DNA of 18,528 bases from an uncultured Deinococcales bacterium (lineage in GTDB: Bacteria; Deinococcota; Deinococci; Deinococcales; JAAFIG01), in NCBI GenBank assembly GCA_964244895.1, contig CAXTKV010000090.1, positions 1,292-19,819 on the forward strand, in the 5' to 3' direction. Shown piece after piece: positions 8,086-16,573 of the stretch (positions are counted from its first letter, which is position 1; each line of letters starts with the position of its first letter). Made by a program: the position numbers and the translations under genes. The notes under the pieces were generated by a model. It was not told the DNA's origin. It worked only from the letters and a program-made list of their open reading frames with translations, and made no database searches.

Positions 8086-9004
8086 ATTCCTGCACGTCGC
8101 GGTTGGTGAAGCTCCAGATCATCAACCCGGCGAACAACAAAAAGTACACGCCGGACACGCCGACCGACCAGCCGACCTGCGACCAGTCGAGCACCGGAAT
8201 CACGCTCGGTGCGCTCGACCCCAACAAATTGACCGCGTCCTGCCCGAGCAGCCTCGAGCCCAGGCTGATGTTCGGCGTCAAGAAGAAGCGCGGCACGTCC
8301 TGAAGCACCTGCTGCAAGCGCGCCGCCTCGAGCGGAGCGGACAGCGGGCTGAGCTGTCCGACCTGCGCCACGATCGCCGCGCGCACGATGGTTTCAATCA
8401 ATCCGGGCAGCACCACCACGCCGATCACCGCAATCGCAGGCGAGGCCGTCAACCACGCGATCAAGAAGCCCAACGCCAGCGGAGCCGCCAGCACCAGCCA
8501 TTGCAGAAAATGCAGCGCCACCAGCGCACCCCAATCGCCCCCAAAACCGTCTGATAGCCCTGCCACGGTCGCCAGGCTGCCGAACACCAGGCTGCCCAGC
8601 AAACCGCCGAACAGGATGGCCGCCAGAAGCAGCATTCCCGACACGAACTTGGCGGCAATCACCCGTATCCGATCCGGGTTGGCGACCAGGATCGTTTTCC
8701 ACATCTTGAAGCTGCGTTCCTCACCGACCAAAAAGATCGCCATGACCGCCACCACCGGCAGGAGCATCAACTGGAACAACCCGCCCAGGCTGTTGCGCGC
8801 CATGTTGTACGGGCTGGCGATCTGGTTGATGGCCGTGTTGATGGTGTTGCCGTCCGCCAGCCCGCTGCCCGCCACCCGGCTCGAGACGAAGGCTGCCGAT
8901 ATCAGCTGCAAGGCGGGTGCGACGAGAATAAAAAAGGCCAGCAGCACCCAGAAACGCTTTTTCCTGGATGCCTTGAAAATTTCTGCGGCGATCATCTCAA
9001 GCAC
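8084..9004 (-). CDS. ABC-2 type exporter permease
   Basis: 306 aa; MLEMIAAEIFKASRKK N-terminus, GEERSFKMWKTILVANPDRIRVIAAKF, six or more TM helices, C-terminal FTNRDV; 8-nt overlap with the ATPase gene. Confidence 0.9.
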   Translation of the reverse strand: MLEMIAAEIFKASRKKRFWVLLAFFILVAPALQLISAAFVSSRVAGSGLADGNTINTAINQIASPYNMARNSLGGLFQLMLLPVVAVMAIFLVGEERSFKMWKTILVANPDRIRVIAAKFVSGMLLLAAILFGGLLGSLVFGSLATVAGLSDGFGGDWGALVALHFLQWLVLAAPLALGFLIAWLTASPAIAVIGVVVLPGLIETIVRAAIVAQVGQLSPLSAPLEAARLQQVLQDVPRFFLTPNISLGSRLLGQDAVNLLGSSAPSVIPVLDWSQVGWSVGVSGVYFLLFAGLMIWSFTNRDVQE

Positions 9005-9959
9005 GGCTGGCCTCCACGACCGGGTTCTGGGATGCGGCGCCCTGCGAAGCCTTGACGATCTCCAGGTACGCGTCCTCGAGATCCTGCTGCGGTGCGTCCC
9101 GGCGCATCTCCAGGATCGGGATGTTCGATTGCACCAGCAAGGGCGCGAGGCGGTACGCGGCGGCCTGCGGCATGACGATCCGCACGGTGTTTGTCGCGTT
9201 TTCCAGAGCCTCCGCGCGAATCACCCACGGTTCGCGGCGCAAGATTTCCAATGCTCGAAGCGCCTCCGAAGTCTCGAGCCGGTAGGCGGTGTCGGCGGCG
9301 TCGATGCGGTGAAAGAGATCACCGACCGGGCCGTCCGCCAAGAGCTTGCCTTTATCGATGATCAGCACGCGCCGCGCGAATTTTTCGACTTCCGCCAGAA
9401 TGTGGCTCGACACCAGCACCGTCAAGCCCGTCTCGCCGAAACGGATGATCGTGTCGCGCAATTCCGCCACGCCCTCCGGATCCAGGCCGTTGGCGGGCTC
9501 GTCCAGGATCAGGACTTTCGGGTTCGGCAAGAGCGCCCGCGCCAAGCCCAGGCGTTGCCTCATGCCCTGCGAATACTTGTGCACCCGATCCTTGGCTCGA
9601 GCCGTCAACTTGACCAAATCCAGCACTTCCGAAATGCGTTTGTCCGGAATTCCGCCGTGCATGCCCGCCGCATAGGACAGGTTGTCGTGCCCGGAAAGGT
9701 ACGGGTAAAAGGACGGTTCCTCGATCATTGCGCCCAGTTGCCGCAAGCTCGCGCCCGGCACGGCCTGATCCAGCACGCGCACCGTGCCGGACGTGGGGCG
9801 GATCAAGCCCACGATCATTCGCATCGTGGTCGTCTTGCCCGCACCGTTCGGCCCGAGAAACCCCACGATCTCTCCGGGTTCGAGCTTGAAAGAGATGTTG
9901 TCCACGGCTTTTCTCGAGCCGTAGCGCTTACTCAGGCCGCCAATTTCGATCACGCTCAC
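8997..9959 (-). CDS. ABC exporter ATP-binding subunit (CcmA/BcrA-like)
   Basis: Walker A GPNGAGKTT, signature YSQGMRQRLG, Walker B LILDEPANGLDP, H-loop SSHILAE; TAGACT 6 nt before GTG. Confidence 0.95.
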   Translation of the reverse strand: MSVIEIGGLSKRYGSRKAVDNISFKLEPGEIVGFLGPNGAGKTTTMRMIVGLIRPTSGTVRVLDQAVPGASLRQLGAMIEEPSFYPYLSGHDNLSYAAGMHGGIPDKRISEVLDLVKLTARAKDRVHKYSQGMRQRLGLARALLPNPKVLILDEPANGLDPEGVAELRDTIIRFGETGLTVLVSSHILAEVEKFARRVLIIDKGKLLADGPVGDLFHRIDAADTAYRLETSEALRALEILRREPWVIRAEALENATNTVRIVMPQAAAYRLAPLLVQSNIPILEMRRDAPQQDLEDAYLEIVKASQGAASQNPVVEASRA

Positions 9960-10013
9960 GAGGTCAGTCTACGCGAGCCGCGCCTGAGCGGTTCCCGTGA
10001 TGGGTGCTCAGCG

Positions 10014-10063
10014 CGAGAACACCGTCCAGCACGCGAAATTGAGAATGCGTGCTGGACGGTGTT
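10014..10063 (+). repeat. Palindromic repeat family, copy 5 (best-preserved copy)
   Basis: AACACCGTCCAGCACGC (10018-10034) / GCGTGCTGGACGGTGTT (10047-10063): perfect 17-bp stem with a 12-nt loop. Confidence 0.92.
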
Positions 10064-10228
10064 GCCCTCAAGCAATGTCAGTCAGACTCAAAATGGACGC
10101 GAAGACAGAATGCAAACCGTGCAGATCAGGCTCGAAAGCACCGCTCTCGATCGACGGTTTGCGCTCCTCCGGTTGACTTCAAATGTGCGGCCCGAACTGT
10201 ATTTGTCGCCTCGAGCAAGACTGCCTCA

Positions 10229-10248
10229 GGGTAAGGCCAATCTTACCC
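10229..10248. promoter_or_regulatory. Dyad GGGTAAG-N6-CTTACCC, candidate regulator site upstream of icd
   Basis: Perfect 7-bp inverted repeat about 45 nt upstream of a TACGAT -10 candidate (10294-10299). Confidence 0.4.
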
Positions 10249-10309
10249 GAAAAGACCGTCGCCAAAACACCAGAATCCCGTTCCGATCACCCCTACGATG
10301 CCGTGCAGC

Positions 10310-10342
10310 ATGTGCTGGAGAGCGAATAACGCTCCAGCACAT
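10310..10342 (+). promoter_or_regulatory. Strong hairpin in the icd 5' UTR directly before the SD
   Basis: ATGTGCTGG-AG-AGCG-AATAA-CGCT-CCAGCACAT, then c GGGAGG cgt ATG. Confidence 0.6.
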
Positions 10343-10352
10343 CGGGAGGCGT

Positions 10353-11804
10353 ATGTCAAAAATTCCCATCACCGTCGCACACGGCGACGGTATCGGCCCG
10401 GAAATCATGGACGCGACGCTCGAGGTGCTGACGGCGGCGGGCGCGCAGCTTCAACCCGAAACCATCCAGATCGGCAAATCGGTCTACGAAAGGGGCTTCT
10501 CGAGCGGCATCGAACCGGCCAGCTGGGAATCGTTGCGGCGCACCAAAGTCTTCTTGAAATCCCCGATCACGACTCCCTCGGGCGGCGGGTACAAGAGCTT
10601 GAACGTGACGATCCGCAAGACGCTCGGCCTGTACGCCAACGTCCGACCGTGCCAGTCGTTTGAACCTTTCGTGGCGACCAAACACGCCGGTATCGACCTG
10701 GTGATCGTGCGCGAGAACGAGGAAGACCTCTACGCCGGGATCGAACACCAACAGACGGACGAAGTCGTGCAGTGCTTGAAATTGATCTCGAGACCTGGCA
10801 CGGAACGGATCGTGCGTTACGCCCTCGAATACGCGCGGCGCACCAACCGAAAACGCGTGACCTGCATCACCAAGGACAACATCATGAAGTTGACCGACGG
10901 CCTGTTTCACAAGGTCTTCGACGAGATCGGCGCAGAATACCCGGAACTCGAAAAGGACCACATGATCGTGGACATCGGCGCGGCCAAACTGGCTGAGACG
11001 CCCGAACGATTCGACGTGATCCTCGCGCCGAACCTCTACGGCGACATCCTCTCGGACATCGCCGCCGAGGTCACGGGATCGGTCGGGCTGGCCGGATCGT
11101 CCAACGTCGGCGATCACATCGCCATGTTCGAGGCCGTCCACGGCAGCGCCCCCGACATCGCCGGAAAAGGGATCGCGAATCCGTCCGGTCTGCTGAACGC
11201 CGCCGTGCTGATGCTGGTTCACATCGGTCAGCCGGAGGTCGCGTCCCGCATCAAGAACGCCTGGTTGAAAACCCTGGAGGACGGCGTTCACACCGCCGAC
11301 ATCTTCGAGGAAGGCGTCAGCCGACAGCGCGTCGGCACGAAAGAATTCGCGCAGGCGGTGATTGGAAATCTGGGTTCAGGGCCATCCAGACTGCCCGCAG
11401 CCAAGTTCGGTGCCGCCAACCCCGCCCCGATGGTTCCAATCTCGACCGGAACGCGCCGCGAGCCCGCCAAGAAAGAGACTGTCGGCGTGGACGTGTTCGT
11501 CAACTGGCGCGGTCAGAACCCCGAAGAACTCGCGGCGCAACTGCAGGGCTGCAACCTCGAGCACCTGAAATTGATCATGATCACCAATCGCGGCGTCAAG
11601 GTCTGGCCCGGCGGCTTTCCCGAGACCTTCCGCACCGACCACTGGCGCGGACGATTCACCGTGCCGGACGGGCTGGCCGCCAGCCACCACGAGATCGCGC
11701 GCCTGCTGGCTCGGGTGGCGGACGCGGGCATGGATTTCATCAAGATCGAGAACCTGTGCACGTTTGATGGGCAGCCGGGGTTCTCGCTGGGTCAAGGTCA
11801 GTAG
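10353..11804 (+). CDS. icd: Isocitrate dehydrogenase, long form with C-terminal extension (483 aa)
   Basis: MSKIPITVAHGDGIGPEIM...PITTPSGGGYKSLNVTIRKTLGLYANVRP...IVRENEEDLY...TKDNIMK...PNLYGDILSD...FEAVHGSAPDIAGKGIANP; SD GGGAGG. Start is 10353, not 8388. Confidence 0.95.
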   Translation: MSKIPITVAHGDGIGPEIMDATLEVLTAAGAQLQPETIQIGKSVYERGFSSGIEPASWESLRRTKVFLKSPITTPSGGGYKSLNVTIRKTLGLYANVRPCQSFEPFVATKHAGIDLVIVRENEEDLYAGIEHQQTDEVVQCLKLISRPGTERIVRYALEYARRTNRKRVTCITKDNIMKLTDGLFHKVFDEIGAEYPELEKDHMIVDIGAAKLAETPERFDVILAPNLYGDILSDIAAEVTGSVGLAGSSNVGDHIAMFEAVHGSAPDIAGKGIANPSGLLNAAVLMLVHIGQPEVASRIKNAWLKTLEDGVHTADIFEEGVSRQRVGTKEFAQAVIGNLGSGPSRLPAAKFGAANPAPMVPISTGTRREPAKKETVGVDVFVNWRGQNPEELAAQLQGCNLEHLKLIMITNRGVKVWPGGFPETFRTDHWRGRFTVPDGLAASHHEIARLLARVADAGMDFIKIENLCTFDGQPGFSLGQGQ

Positions 11805-11870: not shown

Positions 11871-14354
11871 TCAGCTGTTCTTGAGCGCCCACAGCCGAAC
11901 CCGTGCCGCCGTGCGGACGTAACTGATGGGATCGCTCGAGGACAGATGCTCGAGCTTCGCGGAATCCTTTGAAACCCGCACCGCCGCGAGCCGCACGCGC
12001 GGTCTCGCGTCCTCGAGCATGAATTCCATCCGGAAATCTGGGTCGAGCTTGTGCAACGCACCGATGGCGCTCGAGGCGATCTGCTCGTCGGCGTGATCCA
12101 GGTACGGGCGCACGGCCTCGAAGCGCCCGCCCAATTCCGCGATGATCTCGAGCGCTTTGGACAGCACGCGTTCGGGCAGGGCTGCGAGTTGATCCTCGAG
12201 CAGTTTCGCCTCGAAGCGCACGCCCTGCGTGGCGGCCTCGATCAGCTCTAAGGCTTCAGAGAACGCGAAGCCCGCGCCGGATTTCGCAACCGCGAGACGG
12301 GGTTCCGGGGCCGCAGGCTTCGGCGTCTCGTTCCTGGACATTTCGGATTTCGGGATCGGCTTCGGCGGTGCGGGACGCGCAGCCGTATCGCCCTTCAGCA
12401 GCTCCAGCACGTCCTGGCCGTAACGCTCGAGTTTGCTCGGCCCGATGCCGGGAACGTTGCCCAGCGCCTCGAGCGTGCGCGGGCGAGCGGTCACCAGCGC
12501 GGCCAGCGTTTTGTCGTGCATGACGTAGGCGGGCGAGAGCTTGTCGCGTTTGGCCGCCTCGAGCCGCCAGCTTTTGAGCGCCATCGTGAGTGGGTCGTCC
12601 GGGTCGAGTTCGGGCTTCACGTTCACCGCAACACCGTTCTGGACGCTGTTTTTTGACGCTCGAGATTCGCGTGTGGGACTGTGTTCTCGAGACTCGCCCG
12701 ATTCTGGACTTCCGCTGGTCACCACGATCACGCCGCTTTTTTCCGTCAGTTCACCGTCGCGGATGGCTTCCTCGATGGCGGCGCGAACCTCGTCCTGGCT
12801 GTAAAAACGCAGCACGCCGAAACCGGGATCGGTGCGCAGGCCGCCCATCACGACTTCCTTGGCGGTTGATCCGGTCAAGACCTGCACCATCAGTTTCTTG
12901 GTGACGGTCTTGCGTTTCGCCAGCGCCAGGATGCCGGTGCGCAGGCTGGCGCTCTGGCGCGGGTCGCCGACCTCGCCGAGTTCGGGGCGGCAACGGTCGC
13001 AGTTGCCGCACGGCCCCATGCGCTGGCTGAAATGCCCGACCAGAAAGGCGCGTCGGCAACCCGCCGTGCGCGCGTAACCCACGACTTTTTCCATGGCGTT
13101 CAGCTCGAAGCGTTTGCGGGCGTACATGGCGGTGTAGCTGGCGGTGCGGGCGTTCGCGCCCTTGACGGCGGTGTAGACGCCGCCCTCTAAGGTCAGCAGG
13201 TTTGCGTCAAAAAGCGCCTTGACGGCCACGTTGACGGGCGTGGAATCGAACCCCAATCGCTCCGAGACCTCGCCGCTCGAGCCGGGTTCGCCTTTCAGGC
13301 TGTCGAAGACGCTCCAGATCAATCGGTCGGGCGGGTAGTTGCCCTCTATCAAGCGTTTGCGCGTCATCGTGTCCTGCACGGCGTAGAGCATCGCGGCGTG
13401 GGCGGGCTGCCCGTCGCGCCCGGCGCGTCCGGCCTCCTGGTAGTAGGCTTCCAGCGTTCCGGGGTGCTGGTAATGCACGACCAATCGCACGTCCGCTTTA
13501 TCGATGCCCATGCCGAACGCGACCGTGGCGCAGATCAGGTCGGATTTCCCGGCCAGGAACTTGTCCTGCACGCGTGATCGGGTCTGATCCGGCAATCCCG
13601 CGTGGTAGGCGATGCCGCCGAGGGCTTCCGCGAGTTCCTCGGTTTTCTTGCGGGTGGAGCAATACACGATGCACGGCCCCGGATGCTGACGGCGCAGCAG
13701 GCGCAATGTCTCGAGCTTCGTGCCCTCGGTTTTCGTGTCGTGGACGCTGAAGGTCAGGTTGGGACGATCAAAACTGCCGACCTGCACCAGTGGATTGTTC
13801 AGCAACCGTTCCGCGATCTCCTCGCGCACCTTCGGCGTGGCCGTCGCAGTCAGGGCCAGCGTCGGCGCGTTCAATGGCCGCAAGATATCGCCGAGCGCCA
13901 GGTAATCCGGTCTGAAATCGTGACCCCATTGCGAGACGCAGTGCGCTTCGTCCACCACCACCAGCGCGGCCTTGCCGAGCATCGTGGCCGAGGCCCGCAC
14001 GCGTTCCGGCGCGATGTACACCAGTTTGTACTCGCCGCGCCGCACGCCCTCGAGCCGGGAATTGAACTCTTCGCTGGTCAAGCCGGACGCCAGATACGTG
14101 GCCCTGACGCCGCGCCGCTCCAGGGCGTCCACCTGATCCTTCATCAGCGCGATCAGCGGGCTGATCACCACGGTCGTTCCCGGCAACAGGGTCGCGGGCA
14201 ACTGGTAGGTCAGGCTTTTGCCGCCGCCCGTCGGCAGCACCGTCAAGGCGTCGTGGCCGTCCAGCACGGCCTGGATCGTCTCGAGTTGCAGGGGTCGGAA
14301 ACTCGAGTGCCCGAAGCGTTTGAGCGCCTGCTCGAGTTGGGCGGGGGAGATCAC
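11871..14354 (-). CDS. recQ: RecQ-family ATP-dependent DNA helicase with Zn-binding, RQC and HRDC domains plus C-terminal HEAT-like repeats
   Basis: [72 protein letters not shown]...CGNCDRC, HRDC-like [26 protein letters not shown]...[16 protein letters not shown] 14354 preferred as start, with TAGACT 7 nt upstream. Confidence 0.93.
12630..12689 (-). repeat. Palindromic repeat family, copy 7, inside the recQ coding sequence
   Basis: Minus strand CGAGAACACAGTCCCACACGCGAATCTCGAGCGTCAAAAAACAGCGTCCAGAACGGTGTT, translated as part of [23 protein letters not shown] in the RQC-HRDC linker. Confidence 0.85.
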
Positions 14355-14373
14355 GCCCCCAAGTCTACCCCGA

Positions 14374-14390
14374 TTCTGTCTCGAACAGAA
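14374..14390. promoter_or_regulatory. RDRM-like (DdrO operator) 17-bp palindrome in the recQ promoter
   Basis: TTCTG-TCTCGAA-CAGAA; 6 nt upstream of the TAGACT -10 box (14362-14367, minus strand), covering the -35 position. Confidence 0.8.
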
Positions 14391-14519
14391 TTCCATCCGG
14401 TGTGCCCTTCAGTCGCCCCCCGCGAAGGGGGTCACGGCAGCGCTGCGCGCGGTCGGTGTCATCGGCCCCGTCCTGGTTCATCGCGGAGGGGTCGCCTCGC
14501 ACCGCTCTCGAGCGTTCAC

Positions 14520-14569
14520 GAACACCGTCCAGCACGCATCTTTCAAACAGCGTCCCAGACGGTGTCCCG
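14520..14569 (+). repeat. Palindromic repeat family, copy 8
   Basis: GAACACCGTCCAGCACGC-ATCTTTCAAACA-GCGTCCCAGACGGTGTCCCG; 10 nt from the radical SAM stop codon. Confidence 0.85.
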
Positions 14570-14579
14570 AGCAACGCGC

Positions 14580-15662
14580 TCACTCGAGCCCCGTGAACAA
14601 CGAATCCTGAACCCAGCGCCCAGGCACGCGAAAATGTGCGGTGGACAGCTTGAACTCGGATTTCCGCAATCCGGCCTGACGGCGTGCCGTGCGGTGCAGG
14701 GCGCGAATCTGTTCCGCAAAGATGCCCTCCCCGTTCATCCGGCTTCCGAAGCGCGAATCGCTCAGTTGCCCGCCGCGCGTAGATTTGATGCGGTTCAGAA
14801 TCTTGTTCTTGCGTTCGGGCAGGTGGCGCTCCAGCCAGTCGGTGAAGATGTCCTTGACGCCGTGCGGCAAGCGCAGGATCGAATACCCGACGAATTTTGC
14901 GCCCGCGCCGACGGCGGCCTTGACCAGCGCGGGGATCTCGTGATCGTTCAAGCCGGGAACGATCGGTGCGGTCAGCACGCCCACAAAAACGCCCGCTTCG
15001 GCCAGAAGGCTGACCGCCTCGAGTCGGCGCGCCGTGGTGCTGGTGCGCGGCTCCATCACGCGGCGCAGGTCTTCATCGAGCGTCGTGATCGAGACGGCCA
15101 CGCTGACGGCCTCAAACCGCGCGAGTTCGCGCAGGATCTCCAGGTCGCGGGTGATCAGGTGGTTCTTGGTGATGATCCCGACCGGGTTTCTGAACTCCAA
15201 CAGCACCTCCAGACACCGTCTGGTCAGCTCGAGTTTGCGCTCTAAGGGTTGGTACACGTCGGTGATGGCGCTCAGGGCGATCACCTGCGGATTCCAGCGG
15301 CGGGCGCTCAGTTCTTTGCGCAAAAGCGCGGGCGCATCCACCTTGACCATGATCTTGGTTTCAAAATCCAATCCCGAGCCGAAACCCAGGTATTCGTGCG
15401 TGGGACGAGCGAAGCAGTAGCTGCACCCGTGCTCGCAGCCGCGATACGGGCTGAGGCTGGCTTCAAATCCGATGTCGGGGCTCGTGTTGTACGCGATGAT
15501 CGTTTTGGCGTGATCGCGGTAAAAAACAGTCTTGCGCGGCGCGGCGTCGGGTTCGTACTCGTCGGGGTCTATGGTGACCTCGAGTTGCTCGAAGCGGTTC
15601 TTGGGGTTCCAGCTCGAGCCTCGGCCTTTGAGCGTCGGGTAAAGGTGGTCGTTCGAGGACAT
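14580..15662 (-). CDS. Radical SAM protein, PA0069/Rv2578c family (SplB/spore-photoproduct-lyase-like), putative DNA repair
   Basis: 360 aa; KGRGSSWNPKNRF, NTSPDIGFEASLSPYRGCEHGCSYCFARPTHEYLG (CxxxCxxC), TDVYQPLERK, ITK, MEPRT, PIVPGLND. Confidence 0.92.
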   Translation of the reverse strand: MSSNDHLYPTLKGRGSSWNPKNRFEQLEVTIDPDEYEPDAAPRKTVFYRDHAKTIIAYNTSPDIGFEASLSPYRGCEHGCSYCFARPTHEYLGFGSGLDFETKIMVKVDAPALLRKELSARRWNPQVIALSAITDVYQPLERKLELTRRCLEVLLEFRNPVGIITKNHLITRDLEILRELARFEAVSVAVSITTLDEDLRRVMEPRTSTTARRLEAVSLLAEAGVFVGVLTAPIVPGLNDHEIPALVKAAVGAGAKFVGYSILRLPHGVKDIFTDWLERHLPERKNKILNRIKSTRGGQLSDSRFGSRMNGEGIFAEQIRALHRTARRQAGLRKSEFKLSTAHFRVPGRWVQDSLFTGLE

Positions 15663-15663
15663 G

Positions 15664-15680
15664 ATCTGTTTCTAGCATAA
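15664..15680. promoter_or_regulatory. RDRM-like (DdrO operator) 17-bp site overlapping the radical SAM -10 box and likely start site
   Basis: Minus strand TTATG-CTAGAAA-CAGAT, one mismatch to TT(A/C)(T/C)G-N7-C(A/G)(T/G)AA. It contains TATGCT and ends 1 nt before the ATG. Confidence 0.75.
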
Positions 15681-15854
15681 ATATGTAATCTGATTTCGCT
15701 TTTAACCTGCTGACTCGAGGCGGGTTCTCCGAAACCCGAGTTTGAGAACGGGCGTCGGGCGCGCAAGACTTGTTTTTCTGACCGAACCCGTGCCCATTTT
15801 CCTCAGTATTGACTCGATAAAAGGTCTACAGTGCGGCTCAGGAGCTCTCTCCGA

Positions 15855-15928
15855 CTCGGAGGCGATGAATCCTGTCCCGCAAGATTGGGCGCTGGGGACA
15901 GGTGGAGCCAGTAGCGCAACCGACCGAG
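15855..15928 (+). ncRNA. Cyclic di-GMP-II riboswitch aptamer
   Basis: CTCGG-AGGCGATGAA-TCCTGTCCC...TTGG-GCGCT-GGGGACAGG-TGGAGCCAGT-AGCGC-AACCGA-CCGAG. Closing stem CTCGG/CCGAG, kink-turn-like GATGAA/TGGAG, stem CCTGTCCC/GGGACAGG, pseudoknot GCGCT/AGCGC and the conserved CAACCGACC tail are all present. Confidence 0.88.
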
Positions 15929-15929
15929 C

Positions 15930-15946
15930 ACACGCGAAACGCGTGT
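15930..15946 (+). promoter_or_regulatory. Hairpin immediately after the aptamer (possible expression platform)
   Basis: ACACGCG-AAA-CGCGTGT; no adjacent U-tract. Confidence 0.45.
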
Positions 15947-16000
15947 CGTCCTGTTTGGTGCAGCGTCCCAGCCTGAACGCACTATGCGCTGGAGACACCC

Positions 16001-16573
16001 ATGAAAAAATTATTCGGACTCGGACTCGCCGGAATCGTCATGCTGGCCGGTTGCACGCTTCTGCAGGTGCCCGTCGATCTCGCCCCGTACCTGGGCGCGC
16101 AGGTCAGCGGCAGCTACAGCTACGACGTGCCGCAGGGCACGTATTCTGTCAGCGACAAGCTGCCCAGCGCGAGCGGCTACCCGGCGGATTTCTCGAGCGT
16201 GGACTTGCCCGTCACGCTGACCAGCGCGTCGCTGGATTACGGTTTCGGCCTGAGCTACCAGGGCGACACGCAACTTTCCGGTAACGTCACCGTGCAGCTT
16301 TACATGGCTCCGGCTGGTAGCGAGCCCTCCGACACGCTCTGGCAGGACAAGTACAAGCTCGGCGCGTCCCAGACGGTCGCGTTGGCGGCCAACCAGACCA
16401 GCCTTCAGGTGGCGGGCCAGGTCGCGCTGACATCCGATCAGTTGCGGGCCGTCAACCAGCGCAAGATGCGCTTCGGCGTGATCGCGCAGGGCGATGGCAA
16501 CAGCACGAAAGCTGCGCACGTCGAGTTCACCTACCAGGTGCAGCGCCTGGTGTTGAAGGTCGGAATTCTTTGA
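16001..16573 (+). CDS. Hypothetical lipoprotein, beta-rich, downstream of the c-di-GMP-II riboswitch
   Basis: 190 aa; SD GGAG; MKKLFGLGLAGIVMLAG-C lipobox; strong GC3 codon bias. Confidence 0.88.
   Translation: MKKLFGLGLAGIVMLAGCTLLQVPVDLAPYLGAQVSGSYSYDVPQGTYSVSDKLPSASGYPADFSSVDLPVTLTSASLDYGFGLSYQGDTQLSGNVTVQLYMAPAGSEPSDTLWQDKYKLGASQTVALAANQTSLQVAGQVALTSDQLRAVNQRKMRFGVIAQGDGNSTKAAHVEFTYQVQRLVLKVGIL

Follow-up and report, generated by a model that had tools for sequence, protein, structure and literature searches.

The stretch of DNA analysed here, i.e. a window of 18,528 nucleotides on contig C90 of an uncultured Deinococcales genome (assembly of 5.12 Mb, 328 contigs, 62.7% G+C), carries on its minus strand a recQ helicase gene and, next to it, a gene for a radical S-adenosylmethionine (radical SAM) enzyme of the PA0069 family, each preceded by a 17-bp site of its own that resembles the radiation/desiccation response motif (RDRM). 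It is probable, judging by the letters of the sites and their distribution among relatives, that both are operators of the repressor DdrO, and that recQ and the radical SAM gene are repressed in undamaged cells and induced after DNA damage. The two genes contribute unequally to this picture. That recQ is under the control of a DdrO operator is nearly certain; this half extends known biology to a new lineage and adds nothing beyond the lineage itself: an RDRM before recQ and DdrO/IrrE outside Deinococcus are both already known. The radical SAM gene is likely to be a new member of the known DdrO regulon, and PA0069-family genes as recurrent RDRM-preceded genes in DdrO-bearing lineages outside Deinococcus appear to be new. 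The features concerned are as follows, with all promoter positions being predictions read from the sequence alone.

11871 to 14354, minus strand: recQ, 827 amino acids from the GTG at 14354 (open reading frame 11871-14396; family matches begin at residue 12)
14362 to 14367, minus strand: TAGACT, predicted -10 hexamer of the recQ promoter, separated from the GTG at 14354 by 7 nt
14374 to 14390: RDRM-type operator before recQ, TTCTGTCTCGAACAGAA, probably covering the -35/spacer region (sequence, matrix and conservation)
14416 to 14431, minus strand: G+C-rich hairpin CCCCC-loop-GGGGG in the spacer between the radical SAM stop codon and the recQ site, present in the minimum-free-energy fold
14580 to 15662, minus strand: PA0069-family radical SAM gene, 360 amino acids, NF033668
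15664 to 15680: candidate RDRM-like operator over the predicted -10 element of the radical SAM gene, ATCTGTTTCTAGCATAA on the plus strand and TTATGCTAGAAACAGAT on the gene strand, with one outer mismatch

A preliminary description of this DNA had placed the two sites over the -35 region of recQ and the -10 element of the radical SAM gene, and had noticed no further site of this kind in the window. Both sites are found in the sequence at the positions given, their placement agrees with the positions of TAGACT and of the extended -10-like element TGCTAGAAA, and nothing else in the 18.5 kb reaches 7 bits with the weight matrix introduced below. The genome also falls, as had been surmised, outside the genus Deinococcus: its uncultured family (f1) shares an order with the Deinococcus-like family (f3) but is separate from it. 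Among the genomes searched, the window genome is the sole member of its own genus, with f1 comprising 18 further genomes in mostly fragmented assemblies; the order also contains a Meiothermus/Calidithermus-like family (f5) as well as the families f4 and f2.

DdrO, IrrE and the regulon around them

Both regulators are encoded in the window genome. The DdrO ortholog, a 129-residue XRE protein (C77:2266-2655), matches the PDB entries 6jq1, 6rnx and 6rmq over its full length (E 2.6e-66 to 4.8e-64) and is about 80% identical to DdrO proteins with solved structures. The IrrE ortholog is a 248-residue M78 (COG2856) protein, of which residues 5-246, including the C-terminal domain, match 8slm (E 1.7e-63) and 3dte (E 1.3e-59). 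As in Deinococcus, ddrO would be autoregulated, with two RDRM sites of its own (C77:2059 and C77:2107). Its position relative to irrE is different: here irrE follows about 640 bp downstream of ddrO on the same strand (the pair spans C77:2266-4040), whereas in Deinococcus they are not known to be neighbours. In this layout the pair is reminiscent of the COG2856/XRE cassettes of mobile elements, whose genes are adjacent.

With a threshold of E ≤1e-30, DdrO homologs were found in 17 of 18 genomes of f1, 119 of 125 of f3, 14 of 23 of f4 and 32 of 68 of f5, and in none of the 128 genomes of f2. Within f5 their presence follows the genus (24 of 26 in g13, 4/4 in g26, 3/3 in g27 and 1/1 in g28, with 0/32 in g9). 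This distribution agrees with PMC8072749, according to which Meiothermus, Calidithermus, Marinithermus, Oceanithermus and Deinobacterium have close homologs of IrrE/DdrO and Thermus has none.

For scoring sites, a symmetric weight matrix was built from 12 sites of the same genome located before repair genes or ddrO, with the window's contig excluded; an iterated version was discarded, having drifted to A+T-rich sequence and to a terminal repeat of insertion-sequence type, TTTTGATCAAATCAAAA, and the fixed 12-site matrix was used instead. The genome has 22 occurrences of the strict form of the motif, a 17-bp palindrome with the degenerate pattern TTMYGY-N5-RCRKAA, and 17 of these lie in the 25% of it that is not deep within (crudely called) genes. 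With the matrix, matches of at least 14 bits number 32 in upstream windows, which make up 11% of the genome, versus 17 elsewhere; and 30 of the 4266 upstream windows (-120 to +20) reach this value, compared with 6.8 in 20 dinucleotide shuffles. The genes preceded by an RDRM include ruvB, cinA, uvrC, uvrD/pcrA, gyrB, uvrB, dnaE, an SRAP peptidase gene, DinB-family genes and ddrO itself, furthermore recG, a two-OB-fold ssb and a gene for an SbcD-like phosphoesterase, as well as polA, where the site has one mismatch. The preliminary description had suggested looking for ddrO and irrE and for the motif before repair genes; both orthologs are present, and with the RDRM preceding cinA, gyrB, uvrB, ssb and other repair genes, the motif is enriched where a damage regulon would have it, so that in these two respects nothing was found to contradict the proposed control.

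The regulon thus outlined corresponds in its main traits to the regulon for radiation/desiccation response (RDR) that IrrE and DdrO govern in Deinococcus (PMC5552922, PMC8533742, PMC6868357). The same 17-bp palindrome is served by an orthologous repressor and protease, the core genes—the cinA-recA operon, uvrB, uvrD, ruvB, ssb, gyrB, recG and recQ—recur, and the operators lie on or beside the promoter at variable distance. Unlike in the Deinococcus RDR, sites are also found here before uvrC, polA, dnaE, the SRAP peptidase gene and the PA0069-family radical SAM gene. The sites concerned at C139:1275, C328:1491, C21:20712 and C43:10511 precede, in this order, the gene for the SRAP (YedK-type) peptidase, which stands beside a DinB/ImuB-like polymerase gene, dnaE, polA and uvrC. 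All four are typical LexA-regulon genes, and only polA was found among the published RDR lists consulted (dr1707, a sub-threshold chromatin immunoprecipitation (ChIP) peak in the part of PMC8533742 available). The RDR regulon of this uncultured sister family, with uvrC, polA, dnaE, SRAP and a SplB-like gene, thus looks closer to the classical SOS regulon than does the RDR regulon of Deinococcus.

Probable operators before recQ and before the radical SAM gene

Before recQ, the site forms a perfect inverted repeat of 7+7 bases, ATTCTGT/ACAGAAT (14373-14391); it has no mismatch to the pattern and scores 22.3 bits, a value matched or exceeded at only 6 of 5,119,686 genome positions. As it is placed 6 nt upstream of the -10-like hexamer TAGACT, it would cover the -35/spacer region of the promoter. 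The site is conserved: scores of at least 13.4 bits were found 9-23 nt before the projected recQ start in 16 of 17 genomes of f1, and at least 16.4 bits in 6/6 genomes of f3, with no RDRM before recQ in three scanned genomes of f2 (best -4.5 bits). In line with this, recQ is a demonstrated or predicted member of the RDR regulon according to the relevant sections of PMC5552922, PMC8072749 and PMC6300522. In Deinococcus deserti it belongs to the class induced more than 5-fold and has an RDRM (PMC5552922); in D. radiodurans, it shows only a sub-threshold ChIP peak in the available portion of PMC8533742.

The site of the radical SAM gene, which a single nucleotide separates from the ATG (15662-15660), includes TGCTAGAAA, so that it presumably covers the -10 element of a leaderless promoter. 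A leaderless layout is common in Deinococcus and the distance from operator to transcription start is variable, as far as can be seen from excerpts of PMC4007540, and the positions of both sites in the window fit these two traits.

The evidence that carries the radical SAM site is comparative. Its gene is patchily distributed in the order (f1 4/18, f3 5/125, f4 0/23, f5 10/68, f2 76/128), and even the best relatives of the window's protein are only about 65% identical to it. When the regions from -150 to +20 of the orthologs were scanned with the 12-site matrix, the result depended on the family:

f5: in 10/10 orthologs a site, its end 26-32 nt upstream of the start (19.4, 18.5, 18.5, 18.0, 15.5, 15.5, 14.9, 14.1, 13.2 and 9.8 bits, i.e. 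9/10 at ≥13.2 bits)
f1: window genome 14.8 bits; G004 13.4 bits, directly adjoining the ATG like the window's site; G005 12.5 bits, at the -35 position; G007 and G009 6.5-6.7 bits
f3: five orthologs, all with the site at the start codon (13.4, 11.9, 10.6, 7.1 and 6.0 bits, i.e. 1/5 at ≥13 bits)
f2, without DdrO: 0/14 orthologs with a site, best 4.7 bits
other phyla: 0/74 orthologs with a site, best 9.3 bits, median -0.6 bits

The matrix transfers to f5, where the ddrO genes of 5/5 genomes have sites of 19.4-21.2 bits plus weaker ones, and the f5 site before the radical SAM gene is followed by a -10 element of the type TATGCTAACAT. Among named records, Calidithermus chliarophilus DSM 9957 has the same site as the f5 genome G182, and a metagenome-assembled genome of Meiothermus sp. 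the same site as the f5 genome G180. The comparative data support the radical SAM site because an RDRM recurs before the orthologs in DdrO-bearing lineages and is absent in those without DdrO. The expectation in the preliminary description that both sites would be conserved upstream of orthologs was thus borne out for recQ; for the radical SAM gene it holds in several DdrO lineages, with a mixed result in the window's own family, where sites of at least 12.5 bits were found in 3/5 genomes.

If both sites operate as proposed, a DdrO dimer would bind to each palindrome, blocking RNA polymerase at the -35/spacer region in the case of recQ and the -10 element and start of a leaderless promoter in the case of the radical SAM gene, where the non-consensus outer base would make for the weaker operator. 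After DNA damage, IrrE would cleave the dimerisation domain of DdrO and both promoters would be released; such cleavage of DdrO by IrrE is established in Deinococcus (PMC6868357, PMC5552922). The radical SAM enzyme then produced would act on damaged DNA.

Several observations weigh against the second half of this scheme and would rather suit an explanation in which DdrO has an operator at recQ alone, whereas the site before the radical SAM gene is a chance look-alike made up of the extended -10 element TGCTAGAAA and a fortuitous ACAGAT, with the gene being constitutive or otherwise controlled, e.g. by one of the LexA-like repressors of the genome. We consider this explanation unlikely, but as the most serious of the competing ones. 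Forty-one genome positions score as high as the 14.8 bits of the radical SAM site; 27 of the 4266 upstream windows reach 14.78 bits versus a mean of 4.5 in the 20 dinucleotide shuffles, and in the band of 14-15.5 bits that holds the site about half of the upstream matches are expected by chance (an approximately two-fold excess), so that on its score alone the site is marginal and not significant. The mismatch, an outer T changed to A at a cost of 7 bits in the matrix, concerns a position that is T (mirror A) in all 29 ddrO and 13 uvrB operators collected from f1; four recQ sites of the genus g5 have a C at this outer position. The left half of the site, TATGCTA, overlaps with a -10-like element that is conserved in radical SAM promoters of f5, where it comes without a matching right arm and the RDRM sits further upstream, and the match may in part reflect the promoter instead of an operator. 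In the same family, the sites of G007 and G009 are weak; related genomes are non-independent samples, such that the 10/10 in f5 overstates the evidence; and A+T-rich upstream regions of Deinococcus-Thermus genes inflate chance scores. Another repressor would also be at hand, since the genome contains four LexA-like genes (on C164, C45, C276 and C122; near full-length matches to TIGR00498 with 87-97 bits at a cut-off of 110.95), and the enzyme family is LexA-regulated elsewhere. Against a look-alike, however, speak the remaining 16 bases of the site, which are near consensus: in its spacer and right arm, the 11 right-hand bases on the plus strand (TTCTAGCATAA), it does not differ from the distal operator of ddrO in five f1 genomes. 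In the f5 genomes G193 and G207, the proximal ddrO operator starts with TTATGCTA and leaves 3 nt to the ATG, which is the arrangement also seen at the radical SAM site of the window. Moreover, an independent site occupies the corresponding place in G004, G005 has one in the -35 region, no other palindrome was found near the radical SAM promoter, and all ten f5 orthologs have an RDRM, compared with none of the 14 orthologs in f2 and none of the 74 from other phyla.

Two further explanations concern the transcription unit and the identity of the repressor. The radical SAM gene and recQ are co-oriented, with a spacer of only 225 bp in which the hairpin lacks a T tract, and they could be transcribed as one operon from the radical SAM promoter, which would turn the recQ site into an internal operator or a roadblock. 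This seems very unlikely to us: recQ orthologs keep the site at the same distance where the radical SAM gene is on another contig or was not found, and TAGACT stands 7 nt before the recQ GTG as a -10-like hexamer. A strict sigma-70 consensus scan of 14250-16050, which found no promoter for recQ, found none for the radical SAM gene either and is thus uninformative for both. In all four relatives having both genes (G004, G005, G007 and G009) these are on different contigs, and they are adjacent in the window genome only. Each gene has its own site, and most likely they belong to one regulon as separate transcription units and are neighbours here by accident of gene order; the repair 'module' in which they had been united by the preliminary description is not a conserved one. 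Finally, the sites might be bound not by DdrO but by a different XRE repressor paired with another M78/COG2856 peptidase, for instance a prophage-derived one. Five M78 peptidase matches beyond IrrE (six in total in the genome) leave room for this, again weighing against DdrO, and such pairs are widespread according to the parts of PMC8072749 at hand. Yet the motif precedes ddrO itself and canonical RDR genes, here as well as in those genomes of f1, f3 and f5 that were examined, and the DdrO ortholog is close to the structurally solved DdrO proteins; we regard such a replacement as highly improbable. DdrO therefore remains the repressor that we propose for both sites.

RecQ and the PA0069-family enzyme

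The RecQ protein belongs to its family (TIGR00614, 402.1 bits at a cut-off of 219.8; TIGR01389, the RecQ equivalog, 512.9 bits, which is under the cut-off of 640.2), with a helicase core that matches PDB 4q47 (E 1.3e-96) and the Pfam domains DEAD, Helicase_C, RecQ_Zn_bind, RQC and one HRDC. It shares the helicase core, the Zn-binding, RQC and HRDC domains and the RDRM before the gene with RecQ of D. radiodurans. The latter, however, has three HRDC domains versus the one detected here, and a dedicated search for further HRDC domains in the C-terminus of the window's RecQ found none. Instead, the protein has an insert of about 70 residues between the helicase and Zn-binding domains (residues ~340-410; 13100-13340) and a C-terminal extension of about 170 residues (residues ~654-827; 11871-12395), both without a significant Pfam match. 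A form of 830-870 residues is present in all f1 genomes searched; 8 of 16 f1 relatives keep the long form to its end, and in the remainder the match goes no further than query residue 653-688 or, in G007, is divided between two contigs.

The radical SAM protein matches NF033668 with 460.1 bits (cut-off 360) over model positions 1-347 of 348. Its motif CEHGCSYC corresponds to the CxxxCxxC that holds the [4Fe-4S] cluster for S-adenosylmethionine, with C76, C80 and C83 being invariant in an alignment of 38 sequences, in which a fourth cysteine, C150, is nearly invariant. In spore photoproduct lyase (SPL, SplB), the catalytic residues are, for the Geobacillus enzyme, the hydrogen donor C140 and the tyrosines Y96 and Y98. 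A structure model calculated from the 38-sequence alignment (mean predicted confidence, pLDDT, of 79.7; a single-sequence prediction reached only 39.9 and was not used) has SPL chains as its six best PDB matches (Foldseek E 2e-7, TM-score 0.50-0.56, root-mean-square deviation ~6 Å over ~300 columns, 16-17% identity). SPL (PDB 4fhc, 4fhf, 4fhg), which is likewise a radical SAM enzyme with a CxxxCxxC cluster, is thus the best solved structural match to the model. Unlike SPL, the window's protein matches no SPL family model: neither TIGR04070 nor TIGR03886 is among the four families found at E ≤0.001, and a PDB sequence search yielded nothing below E 0.2. As far as the model goes, the PA0069-family enzyme would be SPL-like in fold class only.

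In some relatives, the reading frame of the enzyme may be interrupted. The G005 ortholog (on C97) resides in a 726-residue frame, with the match being split after query residue ~82-97, i.e. just past CxxxCxxC, and about ten f2 orthologs match residues 82-357 only, inside frames of 500-730 residues. These split frames look like intein insertions; NCBIfam lists an 'intein-containing Rv2578c family radical SAM protein'.

The preliminary description had called the enzyme an orphan; a link of its family to DNA damage is nevertheless known, as members of it are published SOS targets. In Alpha- and Betaproteobacteria, COG1533 'SplB' is LexA-regulated (excerpts of PMC3323433); SplB-like genes are under LexA in Bacteroidetes and 'several species' (passages of PMC8565304); PA0069 is one of 15 SOS genes of Pseudomonas aeruginosa (bioRxiv 10.1101/2022.03.14.484287, in a passage citing Cirz 2006); and a RecA-dependent LexA ChIP-seq peak lies at Rv2578c/Rv2579 (a table row of PMC3381160). 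What these systems have in common with the window's gene is the same enzyme family behind the operator of a damage repressor. They differ in the repressor, which here would be DdrO, an XRE protein cleaved by a separate protease, whereas LexA cleaves itself, and in the operator, which is an RDRM rather than an SOS box. The RDRM before the PA0069-family gene thus suggests that one damage regulon has captured the enzyme family that LexA controls elsewhere. PA0069/COG1533 proteins are widespread. A DdrO operator before their genes in three families of another phylum would speak, on independent regulatory grounds, for a function in DNA repair. The strongest sites occur in the cultured, non-pathogenic carriers Calidithermus and Meiothermus, in which induction and loss of function can be tested.

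A more far-reaching scenario, to which we give little credence, would have the PA0069-family enzyme as an ancestral DdrO-regulon member of the Deinococcus-Thermus lineage that was kept in Meiothermus/Calidithermus-like bacteria and in the window's family and lost from most Deinococcus. DdrO and LexA would both have captured it since it would directly reverse a lesion in UV-exposed, dehydrated, non-sporulating cells, as a vegetative counterpart of SPL.

As for whether these regulon members had been reported before, which the preliminary description had left open, the answer differs for the two genes: recQ is a published RDR member, while a check of the RDR members named in the main text of PMC5552922 and in the available portion of PMC8533742 did not turn up the radical SAM gene. 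The main text of PMC5552922 mentions neither splB nor radical nor photoproduct, and a full-text literature search returned no paper joining RDRM, DdrO and 'radical SAM'. Table S2 of PMC5552922 does list a D. deserti 'SplB', Deide_3p02150, which irradiation induces 3.9-fold in wild-type cells (p 0.003), compared with 1.69-fold in an irrE mutant (p 0.27). The gene lies on plasmid 3 (298258-299322), two genes from ddrOP3, and encodes a protein of the TIGR03886 SPL family (628 bits) that is 23% identical to the window's protein over 172 residues; upstream of the gene, no RDRM was detected with the matrix (best 0.1 bits). With another family, 23% identity and no RDRM, its induction was rejected as evidence for the radical SAM gene of the window. 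A tblastn search against plasmids gave no Deinococcus record among the matches listed.

Further features of the window and the genome

The hairpin in the spacer between the radical SAM gene and recQ may be a terminator without a T tract. As a whole, the spacer RNA folds no better than shuffled sequences (z -0.86), and an Rfam scan of the spacer gave no match. A 72-codon open reading frame at 14365-14583, which overlaps the radical SAM stop codon (GTGA), was treated as non-coding, as it has no Pfam match and a lower third-position G+C of 0.71.

On the other side of the radical SAM gene, the divergent intergenic region contains a cyclic-di-GMP-II riboswitch on the plus strand (RF01786, 15849-15934; 59 bits at a gathering threshold of 53.5, E 4e-11), upstream of a 190-residue open reading frame (16001-16573) without an NCBIfam match. 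With the riboswitch at this position, the far side of the intergenic region belongs to the divergent gene and not to the radical SAM promoter.

Elsewhere in the genome, the 17-bp palindrome TTTTGATCAAATCAAAA and variants of it are recurrent, often near contig ends (C3:18058, C137:12252, C167:11685, C260:41, C300:27 and others), and they probably represent the repeat at the ends of an insertion sequence. Within the window, an open reading frame of 1138 residues on the plus strand (8388-11804) has an isocitrate dehydrogenase match that is confined to residues 657-1138; its N-terminal 650 codons may represent either an over-extended frame in G+C-rich DNA or a fusion.

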